DNA of 64,000 nt from a virus (IMGVR_UViG_3300024262_000013); one strand, 5' to 3'; positions 40,477-62,298 are shown, counted from the stretch's first letter. Translations and numbers: made by a program. Notes: a model not told the origin generated them from the letters alone.

Positions 40477-43308
40477 ATGTCTCAAGTAATAATAAGATTA
40501 ACCTTAAGTTCAAATGCAGTCGGACCATTCAGTATATATACGGGCTCTACCGCAACTACGCCGATTAAAACGGGTGTAACTAGAGACCAAATTATTGCGG
40601 GAGTTGTTTTAGACTTACCAGGTTCAGTTGCAGGTATTCAATACCTTATACTTGTAGTTAATAAACAAGTTGGTTGTAATAATGAAACTGTCTCTAAACA
40701 GGTAGTTGTTTACGAATCGGCAGTCACACCGACTGTTACTCCAACTCTTACTGTTACTCCAACTCTTACTCCAACAAATACAGTTACTCCAACAAACACT
40801 CCGACTCAGGCTCAGGCCACTCCAACGCCAACACAGACAGTAACGATGACTATGACAGTCACTCCAACAGTTACTACTACTCCAACAAACACTATTGATG
40901 TTACACCTACTAATACTCCAACTCAAACTGTGACGGTAACACCGACAGATACTCCAGGTGCTAGCCCAACAAGTACACCAACAAATACAGTAACTCCTAC
41001 AATTACTCCTACAGTAACATTAACGTCTACACCAACTAACACACCAACAGGAACACCATCAACTACTCCAGGTGTTACTCCAACTAACACACCAACAAAT
41101 ACAGTCACTAATACAGTAACTCCTACAATTACTGCAACGGTTACTAGTTCACCAACAGGTACGCCATCCGTTACTCCAACTAACACACCAACAGGAACAC
41201 CAGCAACTACTCCAGGGATAACACCAACAAATACACCAACTAATACTGTAACTCCATCAATAACTGCTGAAGTTACACCTTCAGTAACTGCAACAGTTAC
41301 ACCAACAGGTACACCATCTGTTACCGTTACTAACACACCAACAAATACAGTTACACCGACAGGTACACCATCTGTTACCGTAACTAATACTCCAACAAAT
41401 ACTGTAACTCCAACAGGTACACCATCAGTTACGGTAACTAATACGCCAACAAATACTGTAACTCCAACAGGTACACCATCAGTTACGGTAACTAATACGC
41501 CAACAGTTACTACTACACCGACAGATACTCCAGGTGCTAGCCCAACAGTGACACCAACAAATACTGCGACACCATCCGTTACGCCAACTAACACACCAAC
41601 TAACACACCAACTAACACAGTTACTCCAACAGGAACTGCTCAAGTAACTCCTACAATTACACCTACAAATACTGTAACACCAACTCAAACTGCTGTAGTA
41701 ACTCAAACTCCGACTCCAACCAATACGGTGACACCATCTGCCACTGCTGAGGTAACACCAACACCTTCGGTAACCACTACAATCACACCTACCGCTACTG
41801 CTGAAATTACCCCAACACCTTCGGTAACGACTACAGTTACTCCAACAGGAACCGCTCAAGTTACACCAACAATAACGCCGACAAATACAGTTACTCCAAC
41901 TAATACACCAACAGGTACTGCGTCAGTAACTCCGACTAATACTCCAACAAATACTGTAACTCCAACAGATACTCCATCTGTTACTCCAACAGGTACACCA
42001 TCAGTTACGGTAACTAATACGCCAACAGTTACTACTACACCGACAGATACTCCATCCGTTACACCAACAGGTACCGCGTCAGTAACTCCAACTAACACAC
42101 CAACTAATACTGTAACACCAACTAATACTCCAACTAACACAGTTACTCCAACAGGAACTGCTCAAGTAACACCAACGATAACGCCAACAAATACCGTTAC
42201 CCCAACAGGTACCGCTCAAGTAACACCAACTAATACACCAACTAATACTGTAACTCCAACAGGAACTGCTGCGGTAACATCAACTCCAAAACCAACTATT
42301 ACAATTACGCCAACTAATACTGTAACTCCAACAGTTACTCCAACTAATACTCCAACAGGAACTCCGGCGGTAACATCAACTCCAGAACCAACTAATACGG
42401 TCACTCCAACTAATACTCCAACAGGTACCGCTCAAGTAACACCAACTCCAGGACCAACTAATACGGTTACTCCGACTAATACTCCAACAGGTACGGCAGC
42501 GGTAACTCCGACAATTACGCCAACTAATACTGTAACTCCAACAGTTACACCAACTAATACACCAACAGGAACTGCGGCGGTAACATCAACACCAGAACCA
42601 ACTAATACGGTTACTCCGACTAATACTCCAACTAATACTTCAACGCCGACAAACACTCCAACCAACACCCCAACGACTACACCAACAAATACACCAACAA
42701 ATACACCAACTAATACTGTAACACCAACACCAACACCAACTCAAGGAGTAATACCTAAAGCTTTATTATTTATTATTGAAAGTACTAATAACAACGCATT
42801 TGCGACTTATATGAATAACCAAGGGTCAGGATTCTTTGGGTTTGGTTTCTCAACACCACCATCTACAGGTTCAGATATTGTAACATTTATGGATTGGCCA
42901 GGGTTCTATAACGGTACCGCACCTACTGTAATTGAGGCGGTTATACCTCAAACGTCAGGAGGGGTTGATTCCTTTGGTAATGCAATTACTCAATATAATT
43001 TTGAAACGACTGAAATACCTATAGGAACAGTTTCAGGAGCAGCTTGGTACTATTGGTTAATACCACAATCTCAGTTAGGATTAACATCTAATAGACAATT
43101 AGATATTGGTTATAATATTAATTCTGACCCTGGTGTACTCACTGCTAGGTCTCTGAGTCCATCAATATATAATTTAGCGGGTAATTATAGTGGAGTTAAT
43201 TGGGCGGCCGATACTTATAGAATGTATACTTCGTATGGTAATACCGCATTTAACATCCAGAATAATAATACTGATGATATATATTTTAAAGGTTTGACTG
43301 TCGGATAA
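40477..43308 (+). CDS. Mucin-like Thr/Pro-repeat protein
   Basis: ~80 aa N-terminal domain, ~670 aa of TPT(N/V/G)T repeats and a ~185 aa globular C-terminal domain. Confidence 0.8.
40727..42744 (+). repeat. Coding Thr/Pro repeat tract
   Basis: Includes a 54-bp-period tandem ([18 protein letters not shown], ~41.3-41.5 kb) and an exact 72-nt dispersed copy (41461-41532 = 41983-42054). Confidence 0.9.
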
Positions 43309-43350
43309 AAAATAAGAATTAAAAAAACAAATACTAAGGTGGTTTTAAAC

Positions 43351-43358
43351 TACTTATA
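43351..43358 (+). promoter_or_regulatory. TACTTATA variant of the promoter motif
   Basis: One mismatch to TATTTATA, upstream of ATG 43396. The same variant occurs at 60936. Confidence 0.35.
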
Positions 43359-43395
43359 GTAATAATAATAATAATAAAAATAATAAAGGTAACAA

Positions 43396-44868
43396 ATGTC
43401 GTTTATATATAGAAACCCTAGTTCCGGAGCACCATTACCACAACCAAACGTTGTTTCCCCCGTAGAAATTATAGGGACTAACTTTAGTGTATTAGGTGCT
43501 GGAGGTTATATGGAAGTGTGGTCACTTTCTAATTTAACTTACCAAACTTTTGGGGCGAGTGGGGTTATATATAATAGTGGTAATACTATACCTATTTTTT
43601 ATAGTAAATCTAACCTTGGATTTATACCTAGTAAGTTAACCATTGAAAATGATGGTATAACATCGGGTAGACGTAGATTAGGTATGCAAGTTTACGTTCA
43701 TGAAACAGATACAGTTTATCAGTATATTATACCTAATTATGAAACTTTATTTAATGCTGCGAGTGGAGCGACTGAAACCGACGCGTTCGAAGGAAGTTAT
43801 ACAGTATCCGATAACACAACACCAGGTTTAGCTTTAGTTAACGCATGGTTAGACTCCTCAATAGAAGGAGTTAGTGGAGTTACACGAACAAACGCCAGAT
43901 GGAGAATATTTTATGGTACCGATATTACAGTAACAGGTGGTACCTATAGTAATGGTACAGCCATCTTTACTAATACTACGGGTGGGACATTCAACGTTAC
44001 AGGATTCAGTACGGGTAGTTCTAGTTCTTACACGAGTTGGTTTGCTGAAGGTGATAATCAAGCTCCGGCAGTACCGATTGATGTTGTTGACGGATTTACT
44101 TTAAAGTTTGCTGGCATTATTACATCAGGAGGAGCGGGAATAGCTACCGATTCGGCGATTAGTGCTAACGAGATGACCATTGGTTTAATTAATAATGGTG
44201 GTACTCCTGATTCAACAACATTCTATAGGGGTGATGGGCAATGGATAGTACCTACAGATATTGTGGTTAGTGGTGGTACTTACGATAATGCCTCTGGGAT
44301 ATTAACTTTAAATAGAAGTGATGGTGGTAGTTTACCAATCTCAGGATTCACTACGGGAACTACAGAGGACACTTATGTGACAGGAATGTCGTATAGTCAA
44401 GTATCAAAAGAATTAACTTTAGGGTTAAATGACGGAGTGGATTTTATTGCCACAGGATTTGCCGCTGAGGTAACGGGAGGTACATATAATAGTGGTGGTA
44501 CAATTACATTAAATAATAATGATGGTACCACATCTACAATAACAGGGTTAGGAACCATAAATACTAATATTTATACGGATGACGGTACACTTCAAGGTGA
44601 CCGCGTCGTAGAACAAGACACTCATCACATAACATTTAGTGGTGGAACAGGAGTGTCAATAGGTACAGGAACAACGTCACCTGTATGCGCCTTATTAGAG
44701 TTAGCGAGTGAAAATCAGGGGTTATTAATACCTAGGATGACACAAACTCAGAGAGAAAACATACCCACACCTTTACCTGGGCTTTTACTGTATTGTACAA
44801 ACACTACTGAAGGAGCTGAGGAAGGTTTATATATGTATAAATCTTTAGGATGGGTAAGTATACTATAA
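43396..44868 (+). CDS. Tail-fibre/spike-like protein
   Basis: Gly/Thr-rich VTGGTY..GTLTL repeats. C-terminal NIYTDDGTL and GLLIPRMT..QR..I..P..GL..Y module. Confidence 0.6.
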   Translation: MSFIYRNPSSGAPLPQPNVVSPVEIIGTNFSVLGAGGYMEVWSLSNLTYQTFGASGVIYNSGNTIPIFYSKSNLGFIPSKLTIENDGITSGRRRLGMQVYVHETDTVYQYIIPNYETLFNAASGATETDAFEGSYTVSDNTTPGLALVNAWLDSSIEGVSGVTRTNARWRIFYGTDITVTGGTYSNGTAIFTNTTGGTFNVTGFSTGSSSSYTSWFAEGDNQAPAVPIDVVDGFTLKFAGIITSGGAGIATDSAISANEMTIGLINNGGTPDSTTFYRGDGQWIVPTDIVVSGGTYDNASGILTLNRSDGGSLPISGFTTGTTEDTYVTGMSYSQVSKELTLGLNDGVDFIATGFAAEVTGGTYNSGGTITLNNNDGTTSTITGLGTINTNIYTDDGTLQGDRVVEQDTHHITFSGGTGVSIGTGTTSPVCALLELASENQGLLIPRMTQTQRENIPTPLPGLLLYCTNTTEGAEEGLYMYKSLGWVSIL

Positions 44869-44917
44869 GCCTAACTAATACTAAGAGGATAATAACCAAT
44901 TAAAAAAATATAATAAC

Positions 44918-46951
44918 ATGGCAACAAATGGTTTAAATTTACAAGCAAACGGTTTAAAACTGTCAACGGGAACAGTAGAGAGACAATTCATCACCAGCGC
45001 AGGTGATTTTGGTTTCAACACACTGACTCCGAGTACCGACTTTCACTTTAAAGGTGTATCAGGAGGAACGACAGGGTTTAGAATCGAAAGTTTGGGGGCG
45101 TCCAGTTCAAACACTAATTTTTTAGTCTCGGACGCTAACGGTGTCCTCGAAACACGTAATGATATCGCCGTAGGTACGGTAGTAACAGGAGTAACAGAGG
45201 CATCTAACGTAGTAACAGTCGCGTATAACGATACAGGGGATACATCATTCACTATCGACGCATTAACAAACATGTCCTATGATAGTTCATGGGGACTTAC
45301 AGGTTCAGGTACAGGTACTGTAAATGGAACTTTTGAGCTTCCATTCATTACTTCAGGAACATACAACGCAGGTACAATTACCTTAGCGATAAACGCAGGA
45401 TTAGAATCTGACATTACAATTACAGGTCTCGATGTGGGAACTATGAGTAGTTGGAAAATAGGTTCTACTTCAGGTACAGACCAAGACGTATCAGACGGAG
45501 AGACTGTTGATATAGTAGGTGGTACTGGTATATCAGGTGTAATTGGAGGTACAAGAACAGTTACTTTAACTCTTGACGACACGTCAGTAACTACAGGTTC
45601 TTACGGAGCGGCTAATACGGTAGCAACATTTGATGTTGATGACCAAGGTAGATTAACTGCGGCGTCTGACGTATCAATTGATATTACGGCATCTCAAGTT
45701 TCTGACTTTACGGCAGCATCTGAAACAGCTATCTTTACAACGGCTAACTTTGTAGATACTACAGGAGCGTCAGGTATTAACTTCACAGTAGTTAACGGAG
45801 CATCCGTATCAGGAGTTTTAGTAAACTCATCTATTAATACTGCTGGTACTACAGGTACTGGTTCGGTAGATTTAGGTGGAACAATAACGTACAGTTCATC
45901 TGATAGTTCAGTAGTAATTGCTGATAACGGTTCAGGTACATTTGACCTTACGGTTAACGCGGCATCGGTTTCGGATTCATATGTAACAGGTGGTACAGTC
46001 TCAGGTCAAAACTTAACATTAACTGTAAGTAACGGTAAACCTAACGTAGTAGTTTCAGGATTCAGATTTAATTTATCTGCACAATCAGGAATTAGTAACA
46101 TTGTTGATATGGGTAATACCATAATCTTAAATGGAGGTACAGGTATATCTTCTGTAGGTTCAGCAAGTGATACAGTAACATTCAATCTTGATAATACTAC
46201 GGTAACTGCAGCTTCTTACGGAGCGGCTAATACGGTAGCAACATTTGATGTTGATGCTCAAGGTAGATTAACTGCGGCGGCTGACGTAGGAATCATAATA
46301 ACGTCATCTGAAGTTTCTGACTTTACGGCAGCATCTGAAACAGCTATCTTTACAACGGCTAACTTTGTAGATTCGTCTGAACTTAATTTCACGGTAAGTG
46401 CAGGAGCATCAGTAACGGCAGCGTTAATTGATGGTTCTATTGCAAACGCAAGATTAGTGAATGATTCATTAACATTTGCGGGAACTGCAGGAACAGACTC
46501 AGAGGTGGACTTAGGTGGAACATTAACCTTCTCATCTTCTGATGGTTCAGCGATAATTACTTCAACTGCGGGAACTGATACGATTGACATTACAATTGAT
46601 GGTTCAGTAACATCTCAAAACATCTATACAGATGATGGTACTTTGGCAGCAGATAGAACAGTTACTCAAAGTGGTAATGCATTAACCTTTACAGGTGGTG
46701 ATGTTCAACTTGGTGGTGGAGTTTTCCATTATGATAGGATTAACACTAATGTTGGTATAGGTACAAGTACACCGGTAGTATCAGCGAAATTAGAGGTATC
46801 GTCAACTACTCAAGGTTTCTTATTCCCAAGGATGACATCAGCTCAACGTACAGGTATTGGTTCACCGGCAACGGGACTTATGGTTTACCAAACAGATGCT
46901 GAAGAAGGTGTTTATATTAATAAATCATTTGGGTGGGTACAAGTGATATAA
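44918..46951 (+). CDS. Tail-fibre-like protein with an internal duplication
   Basis: Duplicated GSYGAANTVATFDVD.QGRLTAA fibre segment. The C-terminal GFLFPRMTSAQR..GLMVYQ module is shared with the upstream gene. Confidence 0.7.
   Translation: MATNGLNLQANGLKLSTGTVERQFITSAGDFGFNTLTPSTDFHFKGVSGGTTGFRIESLGASSSNTNFLVSDANGVLETRNDIAVGTVVTGVTEASNVVTVAYNDTGDTSFTIDALTNMSYDSSWGLTGSGTGTVNGTFELPFITSGTYNAGTITLAINAGLESDITITGLDVGTMSSWKIGSTSGTDQDVSDGETVDIVGGTGISGVIGGTRTVTLTLDDTSVTTGSYGAANTVATFDVDDQGRLTAASDVSIDITASQVSDFTAASETAIFTTANFVDTTGASGINFTVVNGASVSGVLVNSSINTAGTTGTGSVDLGGTITYSSSDSSVVIADNGSGTFDLTVNAASVSDSYVTGGTVSGQNLTLTVSNGKPNVVVSGFRFNLSAQSGISNIVDMGNTIILNGGTGISSVGSASDTVTFNLDNTTVTAASYGAANTVATFDVDAQGRLTAAADVGIIITSSEVSDFTAASETAIFTTANFVDSSELNFTVSAGASVTAALIDGSIANARLVNDSLTFAGTAGTDSEVDLGGTLTFSSSDGSAIITSTAGTDTIDITIDGSVTSQNIYTDDGTLAADRTVTQSGNALTFTGGDVQLGGGVFHYDRINTNVGIGTSTPVVSAKLEVSSTTQGFLFPRMTSAQRTGIGSPATGLMVYQTDAEEGVYINKSFGWVQVI
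45598..46372 (+). repeat. 160-bp direct repeat pair, 615 bp apart
   Basis: 45598-45757 versus 46213-46372, with exact runs of 44 nt and 62 nt. Confidence 0.95.
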
Positions 46952-46988
46952 TTAAGATAGAAAATTTCAATATAATTTGTATTGAAAC

Positions 46989-46996
46989 TATTTATA
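46989..46996 (+). promoter_or_regulatory. TATTTATA motif
   Basis: Intergenic, upstream of ATG 47060 and preceded by an 8-bp inverted repeat. Confidence 0.55.
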
Positions 46997-47013
46997 ATTA
47001 AACTATAATTAAC

Positions 47014-47035
47014 GGGAGAGATTAACGTCTCTCCC
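47014..47035 (+). promoter_or_regulatory. GC-rich hairpin in the putative 5' UTR
   Basis: GGGAGAGA-TTAACG-TCTCTCCC with no U-tract, between the promoter motif and the ATG. Confidence 0.6.
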
Positions 47036-47059
47036 AAAGCCAAAAATAAAAAAAAACGA

Positions 47060-48145
47060 ATGGCCACTAACGGAACATATTACAGTAATTCAGGAGGATT
47101 AGACCTAACATCGGGAGGCAGTGCACGAATAAACATTGCCACTGGAGGAGGAATAACCTTTAATGGTGGTTACACATTCCCAACTGCGGATGGAAGTGCA
47201 AATGAAGTCTTAATAACTGATGGTGGGGGTAACGTTACTTTTAGTACGTTACCAAACGCATCACTTGACAATTCATCGTTTAGTGTAACTGCGGGTATAG
47301 GTATTGATACGTCAACCGCTTCCGTATCGTTAGGGGGTAATTTATCGTTAACGATTGACCTTTCAGAACTAACGACTACCACAACTGCGGGTAATGCGGA
47401 CTTCTTTACTGTTGTAAATTCAACTAATAGTCAATATAAAATAGCTCCAGGAAATATTAATATTTCTACATTTAATAATGATGCTGGATTTATTACATCT
47501 GCCGGTAATACCAACATATACAATACCAGTGGGTCATTAACTGCGAATAGAGTGATTACTCAAGGTGGTAATAACTTACAGATAAGAGAAACTACAGCGA
47601 CCGCATCAAATTTAAACATTTATTCAAGTAGTAACGCAACAATTAACACGCCAAGAGTTAGGATTGAGGGGGATAGTTCATATAATACGGTTCTTGAGTT
47701 AAAAATCGATGACAAATCAGTGTCAATTGTTGAGGGGTATAACGAACTTGGGGGATTAGTTTTCTCAGTTGACGGTTCGGGTAACTTAACCGCCAATTCT
47801 AAATCTTTCTTAATTCCGCATCCTTCAAAAGAGGGGTATAGTTTAAGGTATGGTTCTTTAGAGGGTCCTGAACATGGTGTTTATGTTAGAGGTAAAGTAG
47901 ATGGAACGAATACGATTGAATTACCGGAATATTGGTTAGACTTAGTAGATGAAGATACGATAACTGTTCAATTAACTCCAATAGGTTCACACCAAAACTT
48001 ATATGTGAAAGATGTATTAAATAATACTATAGTTATTGGTAACTCAAATATATTAAGTGCAAAAATTAAGTGTTTTTACTTAGTACAAGCCGAAAGAAAA
48101 GATATTGGTAAAATGGATGTAGAATATCCAAATACGATAAAGTAA
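47060..48145 (+). CDS. Tail-fibre-like protein with a conserved C-terminal domain
   Basis: YTFPTADGSANEVLITDGGGN fibre motif. The C-terminal KSFLIPHP...LEGPEHGVYVRG...LPEYW..LV...ITVQLTPIG pattern is common at the ends of phage fibre proteins. Confidence 0.75.
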   Translation: MATNGTYYSNSGGLDLTSGGSARINIATGGGITFNGGYTFPTADGSANEVLITDGGGNVTFSTLPNASLDNSSFSVTAGIGIDTSTASVSLGGNLSLTIDLSELTTTTTAGNADFFTVVNSTNSQYKIAPGNINISTFNNDAGFITSAGNTNIYNTSGSLTANRVITQGGNNLQIRETTATASNLNIYSSSNATINTPRVRIEGDSSYNTVLELKIDDKSVSIVEGYNELGGLVFSVDGSGNLTANSKSFLIPHPSKEGYSLRYGSLEGPEHGVYVRGKVDGTNTIELPEYWLDLVDEDTITVQLTPIGSHQNLYVKDVLNNTIVIGNSNILSAKIKCFYLVQAERKDIGKMDVEYPNTIK

Positions 48146-48172
48146 TATAAAATATTAGATTAAATAGAATTT

Positions 48173-48197
48173 AAAGAGGACTTAGTCCTCTTTTTTT
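48173..48197. terminator. Bidirectional intrinsic terminator
   Basis: AAAGAGGAC-TTA-GTCCTCTTT plus a T run, between convergent genes. Confidence 0.85.
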
Positions 48198-48349: not shown

Positions 48350-48355
48350 CTTGTT

Positions 48356-48363
48356 TATAAATA
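48356..48363 (-). promoter_or_regulatory. TATTTATA motif on the minus strand
   Basis: TATAAATA on +, oriented toward the minus-strand ORF at 48349. Confidence 0.55.
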
Positions 48364-48456
48364 CTCAAAAAAGGTGTTTAGTTCTTTACTATTGATAAAT
48401 TTATATGATTTTTTAGTATACGAATATAAATATAAACTTTTAAAGAAAATAATAAA

Positions 48457-49725
48457 ATGGCACGTAAATCGCAAACAATTTTTGTACAAATAGCCGCCTA
48501 CAGGGACCCTGAATTAGTCAAAACTATCGAAAATATGATAGAAAATGCTAAAAGACCACAAAACCTTGTGTTAGGTATTTGTCGTCAATATCACCCTGAA
48601 GACGGGTTTGATAATTTAGATAAATATAGGGAAGATAAACGATTCCGAATTAGCGATGTCTTGTATACCGACGCTAAGGGGGTATGTTGGGCTAGGAACC
48701 AAGTACAACAATTATATGATGGAGAAATGTATACCCTACAGATTGATTCACATATGAGATTTGCCCCTGATTGGGATGTTGAGTTAATAAAGATGATTAA
48801 GGACCTCCAAAAGAAGGGAATACCAAAACCATTGTTGACAGGATACGTTTCGTCATATGACCCTGATAATGACCCTAAAGGACGAGTACAAGAACCATGG
48901 AGAATGGTTTTTGACCGGTTTATTCCTGAAGGAGCTGTATTCTTTTTACCTGAAACAATACCAGGACATAAAGAACTTGATATCCCTGTACCATCAAGAT
49001 TTTACTCAGCACATATGTGTTTTACTTTAGGTGAGTTTGCTGAAGAGGTACAACATAATCCTGAGTATTATTTTCATGGAGAAGAAATATCAATAGCGGT
49101 AAGAGCATTTACGTGGGGTTATGATTTATTTCATCCACATAAGACACTAATTTGGCATGAATATACACGTAAAGGTAGAACTAAACAATGGGACGATGAC
49201 TCAACATGGGGAGACAAAAATAGTCACTCACATTTAACAAATAGAAAGTTGTTCGGTATGGATGGCGAAAAACAAGAAGGGCATGAGGGTATTTATGGTT
49301 TTGGTACTGAAAGAACATTAAGGGATTATGAGGAGTATTCAGGGCTATTATTCTCTAAAAGAGCGATACAACAACATACGATAGATAAAAATTATCCACC
49401 AAATCCAGGAATAAGTGATTTTAAAAATGAGGAAGAGTGGATAGAAAGTTTTTCATCGATATTTAAACACTGTATAGATGTTGGTTTTGATAAGGTTCCT
49501 GAGAAAGATTATGACTATTGGGTTGTGGCCTTTCATGGTGAAAACGATAAAACTTTATTTAGAAAAGATGCCGATAAAAATGAGATTGATAGAATGATGA
49601 AGGACCCCGAAAAATACTGTAAAGTATGGAGAGAATTCCCAACTGCAGAAAAACCTAAATATTGGGTTGTTTGGCCGTATTCTAAATCTAAAGGTTGGTG
49701 TGAGAGGATAACAGGTAATTTATAA
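48457..49725 (+). CDS. GT60-like (Skp1/polypeptide GlcNAc-transferase-like) glycosyltransferase
   Basis: IFVQIAAYRDPEL..TI, GVCWARNQVQQLY.GEMYTLQIDSHMRF..DWD, LLTGY, FYSAHMCF, YFHGEEISIAVRAFTWGYDLFHP...WHEY all match the GT60/GlcNAc (PF11397-type) pattern. Confidence 0.8.
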   Translation: MARKSQTIFVQIAAYRDPELVKTIENMIENAKRPQNLVLGICRQYHPEDGFDNLDKYREDKRFRISDVLYTDAKGVCWARNQVQQLYDGEMYTLQIDSHMRFAPDWDVELIKMIKDLQKKGIPKPLLTGYVSSYDPDNDPKGRVQEPWRMVFDRFIPEGAVFFLPETIPGHKELDIPVPSRFYSAHMCFTLGEFAEEVQHNPEYYFHGEEISIAVRAFTWGYDLFHPHKTLIWHEYTRKGRTKQWDDDSTWGDKNSHSHLTNRKLFGMDGEKQEGHEGIYGFGTERTLRDYEEYSGLLFSKRAIQQHTIDKNYPPNPGISDFKNEEEWIESFSSIFKHCIDVGFDKVPEKDYDYWVVAFHGENDKTLFRKDADKNEIDRMMKDPEKYCKVWREFPTAEKPKYWVVWPYSKSKGWCERITGNL

Positions 49726-52192: not shown

Positions 52193-52218
52193 AAGAATTA
52201 GAAAATAAAAAAAAATGA
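52189..52218 (+). other. 9-codon mini-ORF (MKELENKKK) linking two ATGA overlaps
   Basis: The ATG at 52189 overlaps the upstream TGA, and its own TGA (52216-52218) overlaps the ATG at 52215. Confidence 0.5.
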
Positions 52219-52742
52219 AAGATTTAAATCAAATTTTCCCACAATTAAAAGACCTCGACACCAACTTAAATAATTTAGACGGTTGGGCACTATCTATAGA
52301 GTGTTTTTATTGGATATATAATAATATTGAAAAAGGTTCAAACATTATTGAGATAGGTAGTGGTCCTGGAACGATGGAGTTATCTAAACACTTCAACACA
52401 TATAGTTTAGAACATCAAGAGAGATTTACAAAATTAGCACCTAAAGCTAATTATATACTAACAGAATTAGTAGATGGTTGGTACGAACCTGAAATAGTTT
52501 TTAATTCTTTACCTGAAGAATATTCTCTTATTATTGTTGATGGTCCACCTAACTTAGGTCAAGAAAAAACTAGAAATAATATTAAAAAGTATTGGGATAG
52601 GTTCGATACTTCAGTACCTATAATTATGGATGATACACATAGACAAGATGAATATGAATTTGCTATTGAAACTGCAAAAGAATTAAATAAAGAGTGGACT
52701 CAATACGAAGGGTGGCAAAAAAACTTTATAGTGTTGACATAA
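52215..52742 (+). CDS. Class I SAM-dependent methyltransferase
   Basis: IIEIGSGPGT (motif I), YSLEH, LIIVDGPP and IIMDDTHR motifs. Confidence 0.8.
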   Translation: MKDLNQIFPQLKDLDTNLNNLDGWALSIECFYWIYNNIEKGSNIIEIGSGPGTMELSKHFNTYSLEHQERFTKLAPKANYILTELVDGWYEPEIVFNSLPEEYSLIIVDGPPNLGQEKTRNNIKKYWDRFDTSVPIIMDDTHRQDEYEFAIETAKELNKEWTQYEGWQKNFIVLT

Positions 52743-55126
52743 TGATAGAATTAAAAAAAACAGATTATTTTAATGATGCTCTACATCATTTGGGTAAAAA
52801 GGGTGAGAAATTATTCACACTTAATATCGGTGCGATGGATGGGATTACTTTTGATGAGATGTCAGGGTATATAAAAATGTATAACTTTAAAGGGTTATAT
52901 GTTGAACCTATTCCTGTTTATTATGACTTATTAAAAGAAAATTATAATGATGATGGTAATTTATTTGAAAATAGTGCAATTTCAGATTATGATGGAGAAA
53001 TAACAATGTTAACCATTGATAAATCAGTTATTGACCAAGGATTAGTTCATCCAGCATTTTTAGGGATGAGTGCGGTATACCCACCAAAGAATGGACTAGG
53101 TAGTGAAGGTGACCGTGAAGTGGTTGAAAAATACGGAAAAAAAATTACAGTACCATGTATTACCTTCAATCATCTATTAACTAAACATAATATAGATAGT
53201 TTTGATGTTGTTAAAATTGATGCCGAAGGACATGATTATAATATTTTTAAACAAATTGATTTAAAAAAATATAGACCTAGAATTGTAAGAGCGGAATGGT
53301 CAAGTATTGAGGATTTTGAGAAAACATCTTTGATAGAACAATTAAATAGTGCGAATTACATATATGGTATCGAAGCAGATGATATTGTTGGTATTACTAA
53401 AGAGTTATATGATGAGATTTACAATAAAAAAGAAGAAATAATGGTAGATATGAAAAGTAATGGGGTTACTATAGTCACAGGTTTATGGGATATAAAAAGA
53501 GATGGACTTACAGAAGGATGGTCACGTAGTTATGAGCATTATTTAGAGAAGTTTTCACAATTATTAGAGACACCTAATAATATGATTATTTTTGGAGATA
53601 AAAAATTAGAAGAATTTGTCTTTAAAATTAGACAACATGAGAATACTCAATTTATTGTTAGAGACCAAAGTTGGTTTAAAGGAGAATTTTATGAACCAAT
53701 TCAAAAAATAAGAACTAATAAAGAATGGTATAATCAAACAGGATGGTTAGGGGAATCAACCCAAGCTAAATTAGATTTATATAATCCATTAGTGATGTCT
53801 AAACCATATCTTTTACATGACGCAAAAATTATGGATAAATTTAAATCCACTCATTTATTTTGGTTAGATGCCGGTATCACCAATACTGTACATAACGGAT
53901 ATTTTGTTAAGGATTTATTTTTAGGTAAGATGGAAAAAACTGACAAAATGACGTTCATTGCCTTTCCATATGAGACTAATAGTGAAATTCATGGGTTCGA
54001 ATATAATAAATTAAATGAATTGGCCGGTGGTAAAGTAAATAAAGTATGTAGAGGGGGGTTTTTTGGGGGACCAGTTGAAGATATATCTGATTTTAATACG
54101 GAATACTATAATTTAATGAAAAGTACTCTAAAAGACGGATATATGGGTACAGAAGAGTCTCTATTTTCGATTCTTTTATATCGTTACCCCGAAAATTACC
54201 AATACTATCTTATAGAGGGAAATGGGTTGATTAATAAATTTTTTGAAGATGTTAAAAATGATAATCATGTAGTATTAAGTGAGTCAAAAACTATATCATT
54301 AAAAAATGATTTAGATATTAATAATACTGCACTCTATGTGATAACATTTAATAGTCCTAATCAGGTTAAAACATTAATAAAATCAATGAAAGAATATGAT
54401 GAAGATTTTGTTACTAAACCAAAATGGATTTTATTAGATAATTCAACAGATTTAAGTACCACACCAGAATATGAGAGATTATGTGAAGAGTATGGGATTA
54501 CTCATATTAAAAAAGATAATTTAGGTATCTGCGGTGGTAGACAATGGGTTGCTGAACACGCCGAAGAGAATGGGTACGACTACTATTTCTTTTTTGAAGA
54601 CGATATGTTTTTTTATCCTAAGAAAGGTGAGGTCGGTAAAAACGGTTTTAATAGGTTTGTTAGTGGGTTATATAGGAAATCCTTACAAATATCTAAAAAA
54701 AATAATTTTGACTTTTTAAAATTATCATTTAGTGAATTTTACGGAGATAATAGAGTTCAATGGGCTTGGTACAATGTACCTCAAGAATTTAGAGAAATTC
54801 ATTGGCCCGAAAAACCAACATTACCTGTCCAAGGTTTAGACCCTAATGCTCCTAAAACTAAGATAACTAAAATAGATACATTTAACGGTGTACCGTATGC
54901 TCACGGGGAAATTTACTATTGTAATTGGCCTCAAGTGGTATCTAAATATGGTAATAGAAAAATGTTTTTAACTGAAAAATGGTCTAGACCATTTGAACAA
55001 ACATGGATGTCATATATATTTCAAGAAACTGTAAAAGGTAATATTAATCCAGGAATTTTACTACTTACTCCAACTGAACATGACCGATTTGACCATTATG
55101 ATGGTAAATTAAGAAAAGAGTCATAA
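52742..55126 (+). CDS. Fusion of an FkbM-family methyltransferase, an HtrL/YibB-like GT and a GT2-like GT
   Basis: Likely ATG at 52742 (TAATG overlap). NIGAMDG, YVEPIP, VKIDAEGHD (FkbM); VTIVTGLWDIKR, FWLDAG, GGFFGG (HtrL-like); YVITFN, LLDNS, NLGICGGR, YYFFFEDDM (GT-A fold). Confidence 0.8.
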   Translation: MIELKKTDYFNDALHHLGKKGEKLFTLNIGAMDGITFDEMSGYIKMYNFKGLYVEPIPVYYDLLKENYNDDGNLFENSAISDYDGEITMLTIDKSVIDQGLVHPAFLGMSAVYPPKNGLGSEGDREVVEKYGKKITVPCITFNHLLTKHNIDSFDVVKIDAEGHDYNIFKQIDLKKYRPRIVRAEWSSIEDFEKTSLIEQLNSANYIYGIEADDIVGITKELYDEIYNKKEEIMVDMKSNGVTIVTGLWDIKRDGLTEGWSRSYEHYLEKFSQLLETPNNMIIFGDKKLEEFVFKIRQHENTQFIVRDQSWFKGEFYEPIQKIRTNKEWYNQTGWLGESTQAKLDLYNPLVMSKPYLLHDAKIMDKFKSTHLFWLDAGITNTVHNGYFVKDLFLGKMEKTDKMTFIAFPYETNSEIHGFEYNKLNELAGGKVNKVCRGGFFGGPVEDISDFNTEYYNLMKSTLKDGYMGTEESLFSILLYRYPENYQYYLIEGNGLINKFFEDVKNDNHVVLSESKTISLKNDLDINNTALYVITFNSPNQVKTLIKSMKEYDEDFVTKPKWILLDNSTDLSTTPEYERLCEEYGITHIKKDNLGICGGRQWVAEHAEENGYDYYFFFEDDMFFYPKKGEVGKNGFNRFVSGLYRKSLQISKKNNFDFLKLSFSEFYGDNRVQWAWYNVPQEFREIHWPEKPTLPVQGLDPNAPKTKITKIDTFNGVPYAHGEIYYCNWPQVVSKYGNRKMFLTEKWSRPFEQTWMSYIFQETVKGNINPGILLLTPTEHDRFDHYDGKLRKES

Positions 55127-55154
55127 TAAAATGTTACAAAATCGCTTATGCGAT

Positions 55155-55162
55155 TATTTATA
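55155..55162 (+). promoter_or_regulatory. TATTTATA motif
   Basis: Upstream of ATG 55181 and abutting a 6-bp inverted repeat. Confidence 0.55.
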
Positions 55163-55180
55163 TAGAAAGTATTTAAGTAT

Positions 55181-58100
55181 ATGGTTGGATATAAGGTAGG
55201 TCAAAAAGTTTTATTGCTTGACGGGTCTTTTTTGAATATTGAAAATGTTCAAGAAGGTATGTTATTGCAAACTATTGCTTTGCCCAATGATGATATAACT
55301 AAAGATGGTTTACAATGGTCCACTAAAGAAATAAAGGAGTTACGATATGTTTCTTCTGAAGTTAACAAAGTTTCCAAACAAAATAATGAATTTATTAGTA
55401 TTAATGAATTATCATTAAATGATAAGGAAATATTGGTATATGATACCGTAGATTCGAAGTTCGAGTTTAAAAATGTTAAAGACTTATCCTTAGGTGATGA
55501 TTATAAGTTAGTAAGAATTGATGGAGATAGTATACTATTGGAAAATATTTATAGTTATGAAAAATCTAATAACGAAGAAGATTTAATATCTATAAGTTTA
55601 AATGGTCCTTTTCATTATCTTTTAGATGGGTACATAGTACATAATGATGTTCCAAACATTTGTGTTCGTAATTGTTCTAATAATGCGATAGCATGTATTG
55701 GTAATACCTCGACACCACCTTTAGTGGCGGGTAGTACTGGGTTTATAGATAATTTTGGTAATTGTTGGTTAGCGATTAGTGACTGCAATAGTTGTACCCC
55801 TACCGTATCATTTACAGGTACAATACAGTCGGTATGGAATGGTAGCTCATGTCTTGATTGTCCTAGTAGTGATGTAACACCAACCCCAACACCAACCCCA
55901 ACAATTACACCTACAATAAATAATGGTCAATTTCAGTCTTGTTGTCCTCCTTTTGGCTCTACTAATCTTTCATATACAAATGGGTCTATAAATGATATAT
56001 TTATTTATAATGGTGGTTGTTATAAACTCATAAATTCTTTGGGTTTCGGTGGTCCAATGGCTACATTGTCCACAGAATTTGCCGATTGTGAAAAGTGTGT
56101 TTTGGAAAATCCTTGTTCTGAACCAACTCCGACTCCAACCAATACTCCTACTCAAACTCCGACTCCAACCAATACTCCTACTCAAACACCTACAAATACC
56201 CCGACTATAACTCCTACGGAAACAGTAAGTTATCGTGAATTACGAATTAGAGATTGTTGTACTGATACTTTAGAACTATCTATTATGGTTCCTGACGCTT
56301 TAATTAATAATTTTATTACCACTGGTGCTGCATTCATTTTTAATGATTGTTGTTATTATGCGTTTGCTACAGGTGGAAGTGGTAGTGATGGTGTTAGAAA
56401 CACATCCGATTCAACTGATTGTAATAAATGTCAGACGACGCATCCATGTGCCGAATGGTTAATAGATGCTATTGATTGTTGTGATGAATCGATAACGTTA
56501 TCAGAAAAATTCATAGTGGCTTGTTCCGACCCACTAATAAAACCTAGTGTATTATACGGCGATGTTTTTACTTATAATGGTACGTGTTGGGATATTGTAA
56601 GTGAAACCCAAACAACAGGAGCAACAATAACGTTAGATATTAGTGACTTTTATAATGACTGTCCTTCTTGTGTGACTTGTCCAACAAACACACCTACCAA
56701 TACTCCAACAAACACACCGAAACCAACAGTAACTCCATCTGTAACTACTACTCCATCTGTAACTACAACTCCAACAGATACTCCAGCTGTAACTAAAACT
56801 CCAGCTGTAACTACAACACCAACAGGTACTCCAGCTGTAACTAAAACGCCATCAGTAACAGTAACTCCAGCTGTAACTACAACACCAACAGGTACTCCAG
56901 CTGTAACTAAAACGCCATCAGTAACAGTAACTCCAGCTGTAACTACAACTCCAACAGATACTCCATCTGTAACAGTAACTCCATCTGTAACTGTAACTCC
57001 ATCTGTAACTACAACTCCAACAGATACTCCATCAGTAACAGTAACTCCAGCTGTAACTACAACTCCAACAGATACTCCATCAGTAACAGGTACTCCAGCT
57101 GTAACTACAACGCCATCTGTAACTGTAACACCAGATGTAACTACAACTCCAACCAATACACCTACTCAAACGCCAACAGGAACTGCTCAAATAACTTTGA
57201 CTCCAACTAACACCCCTACTCAAACGCCAACTAATACACCAACAGGTACTCCTTTATCTACTCCTGGTGTAACACCTACTAATACTCCGACAGGAACTGC
57301 TCAAATAACTTTGACTCCAACCAATACACCTACTCAAACGCCTACTAATACTCCAACTAATACTCCAACTGAAACGCCGACTAATACACCTACCGAAACA
57401 GCTAACGTAACTGCTACACCTACTGAAACACCTACAAATACCCCAACTAATACTCCGACCAATACAGTAACTCCAACAGGTACTCCTCAAGTAACTCCAA
57501 CGAATACCGTTACCCCAACAGGTACGGCAGCGGTAACTCCAACTAATACTCCGACCAATACAGTAACTCCAACAGGTACTCCATCAGTTACACCTACAAA
57601 TACCCCAACAAATACTGTAACTCCAACAGGAACTGCACAAGTTACTCCGACAATTACACCAACAAATACGGTTACTCCAACTAATACGGTTACTCAAACT
57701 GTTACGCCAACTAATACGCCAACTCAGACTGTTACGGTGACTCCAACGGATACTCCAGGTGCGAGTCCAACATCGACACCTACTAATACGGTAACCCCTA
57801 CAGTTACACCAACAAATACACCAACAACTACTGTAACTCCTTCAATAACTGCTGAAGTTACACCAACAGGTACTCCTTCAGTAACAGTAACGCCAGATGT
57901 AACTGTAACTCCATCAGTAACAGTAACTCCATCAGTTACACCTACAAATACACCAACTGAAACTGCTAACGTAACTCAAACTCCTACTGAAACTCCAACT
58001 AATACTCCAACAGGTACTCCTGGTGTAACACAAACTCCTACTGAAACACCAACTGAAACACCAACCAATACGCCTACTAATACACCAACAGGTACTCCTG

Positions 58101-60895
58101 GTGTAACACAAACTAATACACCTACCGAAACTGCTAACGTAACTCAAACTCCTACTCAAACGCCTACTGAAACACCAACTAATACTCCAACGGGAACTGC
58201 TCAAGTAACTCAAACACCTACTGAAACTCCGACAAATACCCCGACAGGAACTGCTCAAGTAACTTTGACCCCTACCGCTACTTTGACATCTACACCAACA
58301 AATACCCCAACTAACACTGTTACACCAACAGGAACACCATCAGTTACACAAACTAATACACCAACTCTTACTGTTACACCAACAGGTACCGCTCAAGTTA
58401 CTCCAACGAATACCCCAACAAACACAATTACTCCCTCAATTACAAGTAGTGTTACACCAACTATTACTCCAACTAATACAGTAACACCAACGATAACACC
58501 AACAGTTAGTGTCACTGTCACGCCAACAGGTACACCGGGAGCAAGTCCAACATCCACTCCAACTAACACTCCAACTAATACTGTAACACCAACTATAACC
58601 CCTACCAATACTGTAACACCAACTAATACTCCAACATTAACCCCAACATCTTCGACTGCTGGGTGTTCGGCAATTATAACCACAGGTACTACTGTGACCT
58701 CTACACCAACACCAACACCAACACCAACACCAACACCTCAAGGGGGTACATCTGTCGGTGGTGAGGTGACTTTCGTAATTGACCAAGGATATTTTGACTG
58801 TGGTGAAGTAGCAAGATTAACTAATTGTGTAAACCTTAGTAATGTAATACAAGAATTTTACGTTACGTCCCCAATAACTTATAGTGGAGGTACCGTAACA
58901 TCGGGTACAACATTTAATGGTACTATAGATGGTATAGAATATTGCTTAACGTTTGTTGAGGAAATTGATGGTTCTTCAACACATATTTTAACATCTGTTA
59001 ATAGTGTAGATGCCGATTGTGCCGATTGTATTACACCTAGCCCAACACCAACAGTTGAATATTTTAGTCTATTTGAAAGATGTAATGGTGTACCATGTAC
59101 AGAAACTGGTATTAACTTTGGTGAACAAACCGACCCTAATACGATTATCTCTAATTGGGTTAGATTCTCATCATTCGCAGGTGTTAATTATCCTGGAACA
59201 ACTATTAAATCAGGATTACAAACAAATGGTAGTATAATTACTAATGACCCTTCAAAATATTTCTATACAGGTACAACTAACCTTGATTACTTAGGTGTTT
59301 TATCTTCTGTAATGACAGAAGGTGAAAACGTTGGACCATCAGGTTTACAACAAAATAATACTGATAGTGGTAAATTCTACTATAATAACTTTATTAATAA
59401 ATTTGTAGTTTGGTTTAATGTCAAGGGACAAACAAATGGTTGGAAATGGGCAACATGGGACCCAACAGAAAATACCGGTTTACAATACGGTAACCCGACA
59501 GCCACAAGATTTTTAACTACAAGTACTAATTGGTCGACAGCATCTTTAACTATTTCAAATCTAACCGTTAGTGGGGCATCTAATACAGTTGTTACTGCAA
59601 TTAATAAGATTACTGATGCTGGTGGTGTTACGGATATGATTCAGTGTTCGCAGAATAGTGGGTTATATAATGGTTTTTACTCTACTTGTGGATATGAGGA
59701 ATATACACATGAGGTTACTATGGGTAGTACCGCGACTGATAATGATACTATAGGTCTTGTCTTAGCAGCATTTAAAGATAATGATGGTATATATGGTCCA
59801 TCAGGTCAAACACAAACGTTACAATTAACTATTAACGGGGATAATAATAACTCTAGAATAATTTTCAATCAAAATAATAATACTCAATCGTTTACTGATG
59901 GTGCCGGTAATTTCAATACTTTAGTATGGCAAGGTACTTCACCATATGGTTCGGGTAATTATAACGGTAAAGGTCAAATTAGATTTAAAGTTGTAAAAAC
60001 AGGTACAACAATAAGTGTTTATAATACAAGTAAAATGGGTACAGGTAATGGTCAATTACCTATAGGTTCAACTAACCCATATACACTATTAGTTTCTATA
60101 GATTTAACTGATGATGCTACATGGACAAACAAACCTTCATATGCAGTTGGAACTGAGTTATTAAGGTTTACGGGTGGTACTCAATTTGGGTACTTAACCG
60201 CATCACAAAGACAAACACAATTCTACGATATTGTATTCTCAGGTTCACAACAGACAAATGATGATTCATTATATGCTGTAGGTCTTACAACCCCTGGAGC
60301 TAATAACGTATCAACCTTTAACGAAGTGGGTGGTTGTTGGGATTATGTAGGTGAAGTAACGGGATATACGGGTCCAACATATTCATTAACTATAGACAAT
60401 GTATACGTTAATTGTACTCAATGTCCTACAGATGATACACCTTTACCATCTAGTACACCATTAAGTAGTAGTGTACCAACATCAACACCGACACCTACTC
60501 CAACACAAACACCTATAATACTACCGACCCCAACACCAACTCCGACGCCACAACCATCGGGTCCTCATCAAATATGGGTATCAGGACCAGTAGGTCCTAG
60601 TAGTTGTAGTACTTTCTGTTCAATAAACTATAATGTAAGTTTAGAATTAACTTGTGATGGGATAGACGCAACCCAACCAACACATATATTTGGTATTCAA
60701 AATGGTATTGAAGGTGGTCACTACGCTTATTATTGGATTGGTGCATCTAATACTGGTACCGGAAATACAGGAGTATTTAGAATTGCTCAATGTAGTACTG
60801 AAAATGACCCATCAAGTCCAAATTATGGGTTATTCGGTAAATGTGATGGTGATTTATTTGAATGTGGTGCAGGGTCACAATGTGTACCAATTTAA
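55181..60895 (+). CDS. Giant mucin-like protein: N-terminal Hint-like domain, Cys-rich modules, ~690 aa Thr/Pro stalk, C-terminal beta-rich domain
   Basis: aa 1-155 are Hint-like, ending YIVHN. Repeated ...DCxxC modules precede a PT tract at 56681-58740. Confidence 0.8.
56681..58740 (+). repeat. Coding Thr/Pro repeat tract
   Basis: Includes a perfect 66-bp tandem repeat of ~2.3 copies at 56798-56949. Confidence 0.9.
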
Positions 60896-61002
60896 ATGAT
60901 ATGAATAAAAAAAATAAAATTGAAAGAGAGATTAATACTTATAGTAACATAACATATTCACTTAATAACGTGAGTGATTATAATAATAGGATAGACAAAT
61001 AA

Positions 61003-62298
61003 ATGACTACAGTATCAGTAAATACGGCAACAGGAACATCACCCTTTCAAATATGGGTGGCAAATGGTTGTGGAGTTAATGCTCAACAAACTTATATTAG
61101 TCAAATTATTAGTGCGGATATCCCATATACATTTAACTTACCATCTCAGTATGAAAATTCTCCATTCTGTGTTAAAGTAATTGATTCGGATAATTGCGAA
61201 GTTTGTGATTGTTTTGGTTTTGGTCCGACGCCAACACCTTCAGTAACCGCAACGGTAACTCCTACGGTAACTGTTACTCCAACACTGACTCCGACACCTA
61301 CCGTTTCTGCACCATGTCCAACTCCGACATATTACTATGGTTCATTTACAGGTAACGGATTTACCTCATCCGCAACATATACCTTATCTCCAACATTACA
61401 CAATGGAAGAGCTCAGTGGGTCTCACCAAGTAACGGAACAATACAGTGGGTTGGGAATAGATGGGAAGTGTCATTTTATAATTTAGCTGGTGTTTTATAT
61501 TATAACCTAAATATGACTATAGATTCACCTGATACTATAAATTGGGTATTACAGGGATGTGCCGCGGATTTCCAATGTGCGGTTTCATTCACAATTGGAG
61601 GATGTGGTTTACCGACCCCAACACCTACTACTACTCCAACAATGACTCCAACCCCTACCGTCACATCAAGTCCGGGAGCTAGTCAAACACCAACACCTAC
61701 GAATACGCCAACCAATACGCCAACCAACACTCCGACTCAAACACCAACTAACACACCTACCAATACTCCAACAAATACTCCAACAAATACTCCAACACCA
61801 ACTAATACCCCAACGACTACTCCAACGACTACCCCAACGACTACTCCAACGACTACTCCAACTAATACGACTACTAACACACCGACTCCAACAGTTACTC
61901 CTTCATCGACAAGAGGCGTGATTTATAACTTCTATTATACGATGGCATTAGGTAGTAGTGGTATGAGTAATGGTAAAATAATGTTTAGTCCGAATGGTTC
62001 AATCAGTAGCTCAACGTTATCGATAACGGGGGCGACAGATATTTTAGTTGCGAGAGAAGAAAATGGTTCTATCGATAGAACTGATGAACTAACAGGTGTA
62101 ACTACAGGTAGTGAATTTTTAATTACATCCATAGATAATCCTTTTGAAAATGTTGTATTAACAGTTGATGAGCCCGACCCACTATTCAGCGTAGCCCAAA
62201 GTTTTGTTAGGTTTCCTATATTAACTTTAGAAAGTTACACAAATGAGCCACCTTTTAGTGCTGGTGAATCATTAGAATTAACAATAACCTTACAATGA
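61003..62298 (+). CDS. Thr/Pro-repeat protein with small globular domains
   Basis: PT tracts at ~61.23-61.32 kb and ~61.61-61.91 kb. TACTTATA lies upstream at 60936-60943. Confidence 0.75.
   Translation: MTTVSVNTATGTSPFQIWVANGCGVNAQQTYISQIISADIPYTFNLPSQYENSPFCVKVIDSDNCEVCDCFGFGPTPTPSVTATVTPTVTVTPTLTPTPTVSAPCPTPTYYYGSFTGNGFTSSATYTLSPTLHNGRAQWVSPSNGTIQWVGNRWEVSFYNLAGVLYYNLNMTIDSPDTINWVLQGCAADFQCAVSFTIGGCGLPTPTPTTTPTMTPTPTVTSSPGASQTPTPTNTPTNTPTNTPTQTPTNTPTNTPTNTPTNTPTPTNTPTTTPTTTPTTTPTTTPTNTTTNTPTPTVTPSSTRGVIYNFYYTMALGSSGMSNGKIMFSPNGSISSSTLSITGATDILVAREENGSIDRTDELTGVTTGSEFLITSIDNPFENVVLTVDEPDPLFSVAQSFVRFPILTLESYTNEPPFSAGESLELTITLQ

Follow-up and report, generated by a model that had tools for sequence, protein, structure and literature searches.

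A putative phage-encoded mucin-type O-glycosylation cassette linked to long Thr/Pro-rich stalk genes

What is glycosylated by a compact set of enzymes whose genes lie between two genes encoding very long threonine- and proline-rich (Thr/Pro) tracts? This question is raised by the viral sequence IMGVR_UViG_3300024262_000013, of which a stretch of 64,000 nucleotides (hereafter the window) was analyzed, and specifically by its region from 40477 to 62298. An earlier note on this DNA had proposed that a five-gene cassette at 48457-55126, headed by an enzyme of glycosyltransferase family GT60, decorates the neighboring tracts with mucin-like glycans. This interpretation agrees with every genomic test that we ran and is supported at that level. 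We estimate at roughly 0.7 the probability that the cassette directs a phage-encoded, cytoplasmic mucin-type O-glycosylation of Thr/Pro stalks of the virion. Gene identities at the level of family or fold, the anatomy of the tracts, and their genomic linkage and co-occurrence with the cassette are shown. The cassette and the candidate substrate genes are as follows.

34120-40365, plus strand: appendage protein of 2081 amino acids with SprB repeats (Pfam E 3e-11) and two short Thr/Pro spacers, a candidate minor substrate.
40477-43308, plus strand: stalk protein of 943 amino acids made of a 78-residue N-terminal domain, a 686-residue Thr/Pro tract and a 180-residue C-terminal domain, the main candidate substrate.
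48457-49725, plus strand: soluble GT-A glycosyltransferase of the GT60 family (PF11397), 422 amino acids, the proposed initiating polypeptide N-acetylhexosamine (HexNAc) transferase.
49725-51308, plus strand: NodU/CmcH-type O-carbamoyltransferase (PF16861, E 7e-63; PF02543, E 1e-19; PHROG 1601), a predicted accessory decoration enzyme.
51305-52192, plus strand: HtrL/YibB-like protein of 295 amino acids, a putative glycosyltransferase (BLASTP, Atlas features).
52215-52742, plus strand: small protein of 175 amino acids, possibly an S-adenosylmethionine-dependent (Methyltransf_24-like) methyltransferase, a lead only.
52742-55126, plus strand: three-domain enzyme with FkbM methyltransferase, HtrL_YibB and C-terminal GT-A glycosyltransferase domains (Pfam, NCBIfam, structural model).
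55181-60895, plus strand: appendage protein of 1904 amino acids with Cys-rich modules, a Thr/Pro tract of ~700 residues and a C-terminal tail-fiber-like region (translation, PHROG).
61003-62298, plus strand: protein of 431 amino acids with Thr/Pro tracts at residues 70-113 and 195-310 made of degenerate tandem repeats, a further candidate substrate.

The resemblance of the first enzyme to GT60 was clear. The 48457 protein matched PF11397 with 216.5 bits against a cut-off of 21 (E 9e-64), over profile positions 95-349 plus an N-terminal stretch, and PHROG 24687 with an E value of 3e-163. All its relatives fell into PF11397 as well. Its DSH metal motif is formed by D97-S98-H99, of which D97 and H99 are invariant across 16 sequences that include homologues down to 28% identity. 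The N-terminal GT-A half of the structural model is confident, with a predicted local distance difference test (pLDDT) score above 80 for residues 1-135, and the C-terminal ~120 residues belong to no assigned family. The best reviewed fold match was Dictyostelium Gnt1 (Q8T1C6, E 1e-21, 24% identity), and nearly all subsequent matches were GT27 polypeptide N-acetylgalactosamine (GalNAc) transferases; the best PDB fold match was GalNAc-T2 (Foldseek E 3.5e-10), and a sequence search of the PDB with the GT60 protein returned no match. Based on family and fold, we propose that the 48457 protein is a polypeptide HexNAc-transferase that initiates the glycan.

Thr/Pro tracts were delimited as regions with at least 60% Thr plus Pro in windows of 30 amino acids. 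The long tracts, put at ~670 and ~690 residues in the earlier note, measured 686 in the 40477 protein (residues 79-764, 44% Thr, 19% Pro, 328 Ser+Thr) and about 700 in the 55181 protein (residues 494-906 and 910-1197, 335 Ser+Thr). The shorter tracts that it had reported in the 34120 and 61003 proteins were also present, those of the 34120 protein at residues 458-521 and 1714-1743. The long tracts contain 43-44% Thr and follow a simple grammar in which another Thr stands at +2 of 83% of Thr residues and at +1 of just 5%, the intervening positions being Pro, Asn, Val or Gly. The two long tracts contain 47 and 42 PTNT, 19 and 17 PTGT, and 8 and 2 PTVT units, respectively. Their DNA consists of degenerate tandem arrays whose periods are divisible by three. 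Both long proteins share an identical 34-residue peptide despite differences in 16 of its 34 codons, and the tract therefore appears to be constrained at the protein level. The two end domains of the 40477 protein are conserved in related loci (L012-L014, L033/34, L053 and L074), and the C-terminal part of the 55181 protein gave PHROG matches to a virion structural protein (E 2e-8) and a tail fiber (E 7e-7). No Pfam match was found for the end domains of the stalk proteins, and Atlas leads for the 55181 C-terminal region were below 0.9.

The five cassette genes are co-oriented and lie between the 40477 and 55181 open reading frames (ORFs), the latter starting 55 bp downstream of the last enzyme gene. 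The tight overlaps attributed to the cassette were confirmed: the first two junctions overlap by 1 and 4 nt, the third is a gap of 22 nt and the fourth is a TAATG overlap, the last assuming that translation of the fifth gene begins at ATG 52742 and not at GTG 52694, the start chosen by the ORF finder. This ATG, which overlaps the preceding stop codon, is probably the true start. No hydrophobic or membrane segment was detected in any of the five proteins, which should therefore act in the cytoplasm.

The cassette had also been described as encoding a carbamoyltransferase, two HtrL-like proteins, a GT2 enzyme and two methyltransferases. The 49725 protein carries both Carbam_trans_N and Carbam_trans_C domains (Pfam); it scored 163 bits against the NodU equivalog, for which the cut-off is 1000, and is therefore a member of the family and not NodU itself. 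The HtrL_YibB domain of the last gene, at residues 258-509, is well defined by PF09612 (60.1 bits, cut-off 24.1), its score of 71.9 bits against the YibB equivalog being below the cut-off of 264.9. The second HtrL-like protein, that of 51305, had no Pfam match, aligned weakly to this domain (BLASTP E 5e-5) and shared Atlas language-model features with HtrL_YibB clusters (0.97). Of the two methyltransferases, the FkbM domain of the last gene held up (PF05050, 68.2 bits, cut-off 22.7; TIGR01444, 47.2 bits, cut-off 37.7), and the 52215 protein remained a language-model lead (Atlas feature match 0.94, 204 features in common; no Pfam or NCBIfam match). The GT2 assignment was likewise retained in part. 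The C-terminal domain of the last gene (residues 515-810, 296 residues) was modeled with a pLDDT of 79.6 as a GT-A fold with an invariant acidic motif, E121-D122-D123, its best PDB matches being TarP, TarS, GnT-I and RmlT (TM 0.46-0.48), but its Pfam GT2 score of 18.4 bits fell under the cut-off of 23.3.

The linkage between the cassette and Thr/Pro tracts is maintained in related viruses. Metagenomic relatives of the GT60 protein number more than 7,000 (protein clusters, 74-93% identity). We searched for Thr/Pro ORFs in the available flanks of 80 IMG/VR GT60 loci spanning 59-98% GT60 identity and found one beside GT60 in 71 of them, compared to none in 80 random viral loci totaling 702 kb (Fisher p 1e-35, kinship ignored). 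All 135 Thr/Pro ORFs found near GT60 share its strand and are separated from it by a median of 84 bp. Frequent occurrence of the cassette in relatives devoid of Thr/Pro tracts, which the earlier note considered evidence for another substrate, was not observed: nine of the 80 loci lack a Thr/Pro ORF of at least 150 residues, and five of these nine are cut within ~2.3 kb upstream of GT60. Among the exceptions with full flanks, L025 and L076 have Thr/Pro pattern matches elsewhere on their contigs, and L063 and L064 have just a 51-residue tract on the opposite strand, the L063 contig (56% complete) containing no pattern match.

A homologue of the last gene, aligned over residues 256-810, is present in 76 of the 80 loci. 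Hence, GT60 is accompanied by a second conserved core gene, which corresponds to the HtrL and GT-A part of the 52742 protein. Between the core genes, loci vary and contain GT10, GT11, GT25, GT61, PLOD-type glycosyltransferase (GT_PLOD), FkbM, TylF or CmcI-like genes. A homologue of 51305 was found in 51/80 loci and in phage XacN1, whereas the accessory carbamoyltransferase was found in just 5/80 loci, plus phages XacN1 and Xoo-sp13. As expected for a lineage-specific oligosaccharide pathway, the initiator would thus stay the same while the genes that extend and decorate the glycan change.

The association was also examined in the reverse direction by scanning IMG/VR for DNA encoding (TPTx)3TPT, which returned mostly large contigs. 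This DNA pattern is strand-blind, and all contigs retrieved with it were re-checked by translation; in 40 of the 42 contigs searched, the reading frame was that of a true Thr/Pro ORF. PF11397 was detected on 17 of these 40 contigs and on none of 28 control contigs retrieved with an unrelated pattern (p 3e-5), a comparison that is indicative only as the controls were much shorter and not length-matched. As many Thr/Pro contigs are fragments broken within repeats, 17/40 is a lower bound.

Furthermore, isolated jumbo phages related by their DNA polymerase showed the same association. The four GT60-positive phages gave 54 (XacN1), 42 (Xoo-sp13), 13 (CM1) and 13 (RAS14) Thr/Pro pattern hits, whereas seven GT60-negative jumbo relatives gave none, and reversed-pattern controls were all zero. 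These four phages form one clade and therefore represent one or two independent events rather than four. The XacN1 cassette is collinear with that of the window at 28-47% identity, compared to 27% for RNaseH, the sole backbone gene compared, and XacN1 ORF369, ORF370, ORF372 and ORF384 encode true Thr/Pro proteins of the same grammar beside tail genes. Virions of XacN1 were reported to contain at least two Schiff-stained glycoprotein bands, for which the authors suggested phage glycosyltransferases as makers (PMC5852040). The proposed glycosylation is directly testable, since cultures of both XacN1 and Xoo-sp13 exist and glycoproteins of XacN1 virions have been stained. Co-occurrence of the cassette with Thr/Pro genes, the genomic check proposed at the outset, is strongly positive in the lineage of the window, among jumbo phages of Xanthomonas/Stenotrophomonas and at some loci of bacteria.

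We infer which residue accepts the sugar, which sugars are added and in which order, that the products are present in virions, and what biological role they have, as follows. Late in infection, the soluble 48457 enzyme would transfer a first sugar, a HexNAc by analogy with its family, from a host uridine diphosphate (UDP)-sugar to Thr (and Ser) hydroxyls of the tracts of the 40477, 55181 and 61003 appendage proteins and, to a lesser extent, of the 34120 protein. The HtrL and GT-A enzyme (52742) and the HtrL-like 51305 protein would extend the glycan, and the FkbM domain, the small methyltransferase-like 52215 protein and the carbamoyltransferase would decorate it. The glycosylated tracts may then form stiff, protease-resistant and hydrated stalks bearing the terminal domains of tail or baseplate appendages. 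Since related phages retain the initiator and the HtrL-GT-A core and swap the genes in between, the glycan would differ by lineage.

Several observations weigh against this reading. The model of the 48457 protein is moderate overall (mean pLDDT 62), and its sole reviewed GT60 match, Gnt1, acts on a hydroxyproline of Skp1 and not on Thr. The C-terminal GT-A domain of the last gene weakly matches DNA glycosyltransferase families (TAGT, E 7e-4; PHROG 842, E 6.5e-6). Most viral loci belong to one lineage and their counts are therefore not independent events, and six of nine near-complete viral genomes bearing Thr/Pro tracts have no PF11397 match. In a scan of bacterial and archaeal genomes, a Thr/Pro ORF was found within 10 kb in just 23 of 80 GT60 loci of the bacterial collection, indicating that the link is weaker outside phages. 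The XacN1 cassette adjoins replication genes (DNA polymerase, RNaseH), and the XacN1 glycoprotein bands were never identified, Thr/Pro tracts being unmentioned in that report (PMC5852040). Finally, the virion location of the Thr/Pro proteins of the window is suggested by gene context and weak PHROG matches.

Could these enzymes have another target? One alternative is a non-protein target, with the cassette making or modifying host lipopolysaccharide, capsule, a free oligosaccharide or a similar glycan, the tracts being plain spacers free of glycan that became neighbors through a variable host-range module. Lipopolysaccharide loci are a known setting of the HtrL/YibB and GT25 families, and this scenario would accommodate both the many phages that have Thr/Pro tracts but no GT60 and the majority of bacterial GT60 loci that have no such ORF nearby. 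Nevertheless, a non-protein target leaves two features unexplained, namely the adjacency of the genes, which is kept over 59-98% GT60 identity, and the polypeptide-type nature of the invariant first enzyme, as characterized members of its family and its nearest structural neighbors glycosylate polypeptides. In addition, the co-occurrence holds at whole-genome level in a second lineage although the genes are not adjacent there, and the cassette encodes neither membrane segments nor a detectable undecaprenyl-phosphate priming transferase, flippase or polymerase. We consider this alternative unlikely. Quite unlikely, too, is glycosylation of phage proteins elsewhere than at tract Thr, either on hydroxyproline as by Gnt1 or on the capsid or tail tube as in mycobacteriophages. 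In its favor, Gnt1, the closest reviewed relative, is a soluble, cytoplasmic N-acetylglucosamine (GlcNAc) transferase of the same length as the 48457 protein, each long tract contains about 130 Pro, and the virion glycosylation published for phages concerns capsid and tail-tube subunits, according to the summary in PMC12619734. However, the strictly periodic residue is Thr and not Pro, and the tight linkage is to Thr/Pro ORFs and not to capsid or tube genes. A hydroxyproline acceptor, for which enzymes of the Gnt1 type require a prolyl 4-hydroxylase partner, would also appear less likely, because the 2-oxoglutarate/Fe(II) prolyl-hydroxylase domain PF13640 was not found in five genomes (G003, G032, G072, XacN1 and Xoo-sp13), whereas control genomes were positive.

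Hypermodification of phage DNA is the least probable explanation. The enzymes would then glycosylate and carbamoylate 5-hydroxymethyl-pyrimidines, as in T-even, TET-associated and 5-hydroxymethylcytosine (5hmC) carbamoyltransferase systems. This possibility draws on a phage enzyme that shares its Pfam families with the 49725 carbamoyltransferase and makes 5-carbamoyloxymethylcytosine (PMC8670742), on the TAGT match of the C-terminal GT-A domain together with one to beta-glucosyl-HMC-alpha-glucosyltransferase, and on the replication genes beside the XacN1 cassette. Searches for a hydroxymethylase or TET gene were negative, which makes DNA modification unlikely. In G003, a complete relative, the sole PF00303 gene exceeds the NCBIfam equivalog cut-offs for true thymidylate synthase (ThyA), and the complete relative G032 has no PF00303 gene; five GT60-positive genomes had no Tet_JBP match, a weak negative as the controls were silent too. 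Moreover, the DNA-modifying carbamoyltransferases identified by MetaGPA co-occur with thymidylate-synthase homologues, whereas those flanked by glycosyltransferases, as here, were on unmodified contigs (PMC8670742). The carbamoyltransferase is missing from 75/80 related loci, the GT-A model is closest to TarP, TarS and GnT-I and not to DNA glycosyltransferases, and two published accounts of DNA glycosyltransferases mention no GT60, HtrL, FkbM or carbamoyl enzyme. Glycosylation of Thr in virion Thr/Pro stalks thus remains the reading that we favor.

The bacterial and archaeal scan recovered 308 GT60 relatives, including isolates as well as many contigs of metagenome-assembled genomes that are possibly phage DNA. 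In Jiulongibacter sediminis and Arcticibacterium, a set comprising GT60, carbamoyltransferase and HtrL-GT-A genes is divergent from a gene encoding a protein with a Thr/Pro/Ser tract of 120-150 residues. In two loci of this type (L366:7948-15145 from J. sediminis and L392:8654-14474), the divergent protein has ~300 residues and a conserved C-terminal motif starting KNIWIGP, and L366 holds a second, short GT60. In the Burkholderiales genera Ralstonia, Achromobacter and Paraburkholderia, the Thr/Pro protein encoded nearby is a VgrG spike that carries its tract at the C terminus. Examples are L397:12291-15152 (Ralstonia sp. 25C), L405, L409 and L423, which encode type VI secretion VgrG proteins (Phage_GPD, Phage_base_V, gp5_C) with Thr/Pro tails of 90-150 residues; the GT60 homologues at these loci align to the phage enzyme over residues 1 to ~330 only and are devoid of its C-terminal part. 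A GT60-flanking Thr/Pro protein with a crAss muzzle C-terminal domain was observed on an 18-kb contig binned as Planctomycetaceae (L375:7499-9262), and the pairing may extend to crAss-like phages.

We tentatively suggest, at somewhat less than even odds, that GT60 and HtrL-GT-A constitute a general prokaryotic pathway of cytoplasmic mucin-type O-glycosylation that dresses Thr/Pro stalks, with swappable middle genes giving rise to lineage-specific glycans. If so, its targets would include jumbo-phage fibers, crAss-like muzzle proteins, VgrG spikes and some bacterial proteins, and it would provide phage and phage-derived appendages with a glyco-code that can be likened to O-antigen diversity.

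The window itself (G+C ~33%) is DNA of an uncultured giant phage of aquatic origin. Upstream genes match phage families (SSB, UvsX-like recombinase, exonuclease, DnaB-like helicase and both ribonucleotide reductase subunits) and precede a baseplate wedge subunit at 19612-21450 (PHROG match), 3' of which are very large co-oriented ORFs, two with SprB repeats. The location of the cassette inside a structural region, as initially claimed, agrees with this baseplate match and with the tail-fiber and virion-protein matches in the C-terminal part of the 55181 protein. Two further features separate the 40477 stalk gene from the cassette.

43396-48145, plus strand: three genes of unknown function (43396-44868, 44918-46951 and 47060-48145).
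48173-48193, plus strand: terminator-like hairpin with a T run directly after it, 5' of the cassette (consensus scan only).

The three genes had no Pfam match and are syntenic in the closest relatives (L011-L013, L053 and L074); the product of the third matches two PHROGs whose function is not known, 17490 and 28536. Hairpin-type terminator sites were no more numerous in the consensus scan than in shuffled sequences. None of the window ORFs scanned was detected as a nucleotide-sugar synthesis gene, as had been observed before. In the related locus L030 (17057-19194), PRK/uridine-kinase-family and class II aldolase-like proteins follow the run of glycosyltransferases and are possibly sugar-precursor enzymes linked to the GT10/GT11 fucosyltransferase-like genes of that locus.

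The SprB repeats belong to two appendage proteins of the window, encoded at 34120-40365 and 62321-63958; SprB is known from gliding adhesins of Bacteroidota. The closest GT60 relatives in genome bins (71-74% identity) carry a Saprospiraceae label. Together, these observations hint at a Bacteroidota host. A megablast search with 12 kb of the window against isolated phages gave no match, and cassette DNA of near-identical sequence was recovered in a dozen studies from metagenomes of marine, lake, freshwater, brine and subsurface origin. G001, the nearest record, is a fragment of 162 kb and stops inside a Thr/Pro tract (at 161,886), and contigs of this lineage (G001, G005, G085) often end within or just past such tracts. 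The Thr/Pro repeats thus break assemblies and hide the cassette from many contigs. Likewise, relatives retrieved using the baseplate wedge gene were mostly short fragments ending in Thr/Pro tracts, from which presence or absence of the cassette is not readable.

Two candidates were set aside. The complete 108-kb viral genome G030 was dropped as a Thr/Pro case, its pattern hit being antisense of a (VG)n protein; in this genome (L342:8333-10540), a divergent GT60-like gene adjoins a gene encoding a 735-residue PASTA and (Val-Gly)n protein whose C-terminal 160 residues resemble the N terminus of the 55181 protein (27.5% identity, E 7e-11). A Hint domain devoid of its first nucleophile, considered for the first ~155 residues of the 55181 protein (55181-55650), had no Pfam Hint or intein match, and the related G030 protein matched Hint with a Pfam E value of only 0.18.

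Virus-encoded glycosylation of virions is itself known, but we found no description of a GT60-initiated mucin-like system acting on phage Thr/Pro stalks in the literature searched. If our reading is correct, jumbo phages of a very widespread aquatic group cover their appendages with mucin-like glycans of their own making, with hundreds of potential glycan sites per stalk. This would change models of phage fiber length, stiffness and protease resistance, as well as of receptor recognition, particle stickiness and antibody recognition. It would also extend a glycosyltransferase family characterized mainly in eukaryotes to phage and bacterial biology, and supply a soluble enzyme set to build dense O-glycans on designed Thr/Pro polymers in bacteria.

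How does this cassette compare with known systems? The mucin-type enzymes of Dictyostelium and Trypanosoma cruzi named in the earlier note are, like Gnt1, GT60 polypeptide alpha-GlcNAc-transferases. The phage enzyme shares with protist GT60 the family PF11397, the GT-A fold and the DSH metal motif, and is soluble and about 420 residues long like Gnt1, to which it is only 24% identical. It differs by being phage-encoded, by its predicted activity in a bacterial cytoplasm, by its presumed acceptor, the Thr of (xT)n tracts, with no prolyl hydroxylase found, and by the C-terminal ~120 residues outside any assigned family. The GT27 GalNAc-transferases of animals and Toxoplasma provide the nearest solved structures, contain a DxH motif and initiate dense O-glycans on Thr/Pro-rich mucin repeats. 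However, they belong to another CAZy family (10-16% identity) and, unlike the phage enzyme, are type II membrane proteins of the Golgi with a ricin-type lectin domain.

The 5hmC carbamoyltransferase found by MetaGPA (PMC8670742) is also of phage origin and combines the same Carbam_trans_N and Carbam_trans_C families, but it co-occurs with thymidylate-synthase-like hydroxymethylases, whereas the carbamoyltransferase described here has glycosyltransferase neighbors and no hydroxymethylase was found. In mycobacteriophages, capsid and tail-tube subunits carry virion glycans at their C-termini (Freeman et al. 2023, as summarized in PMC12619734). Mycobacteriophages and chloroviruses (cited in PMC5852040) resemble the system proposed here in that viral glycosyltransferases act on the structural proteins of the virus itself with no secretory pathway. 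They differ from it in that the genes linked here encode long Thr/Pro baseplate or fiber stalks and a GT60 initiator. Among cultured phages, XacN1 has ORF330-334, which encode GT60 (ORF334), a carbamoyltransferase, an HtrL-like protein, a small protein and an HtrL-GT-A fusion, and its genome also encodes many Thr/Pro proteins. XacN1, Xoo-sp13, CM1 and RAS14 differ by their Gammaproteobacteria hosts, the XacN1 carbamoyltransferase is longer (765 residues), and the XacN1 cassette lies ~4-5 kb from the giant baseplate-adjacent ORF325.

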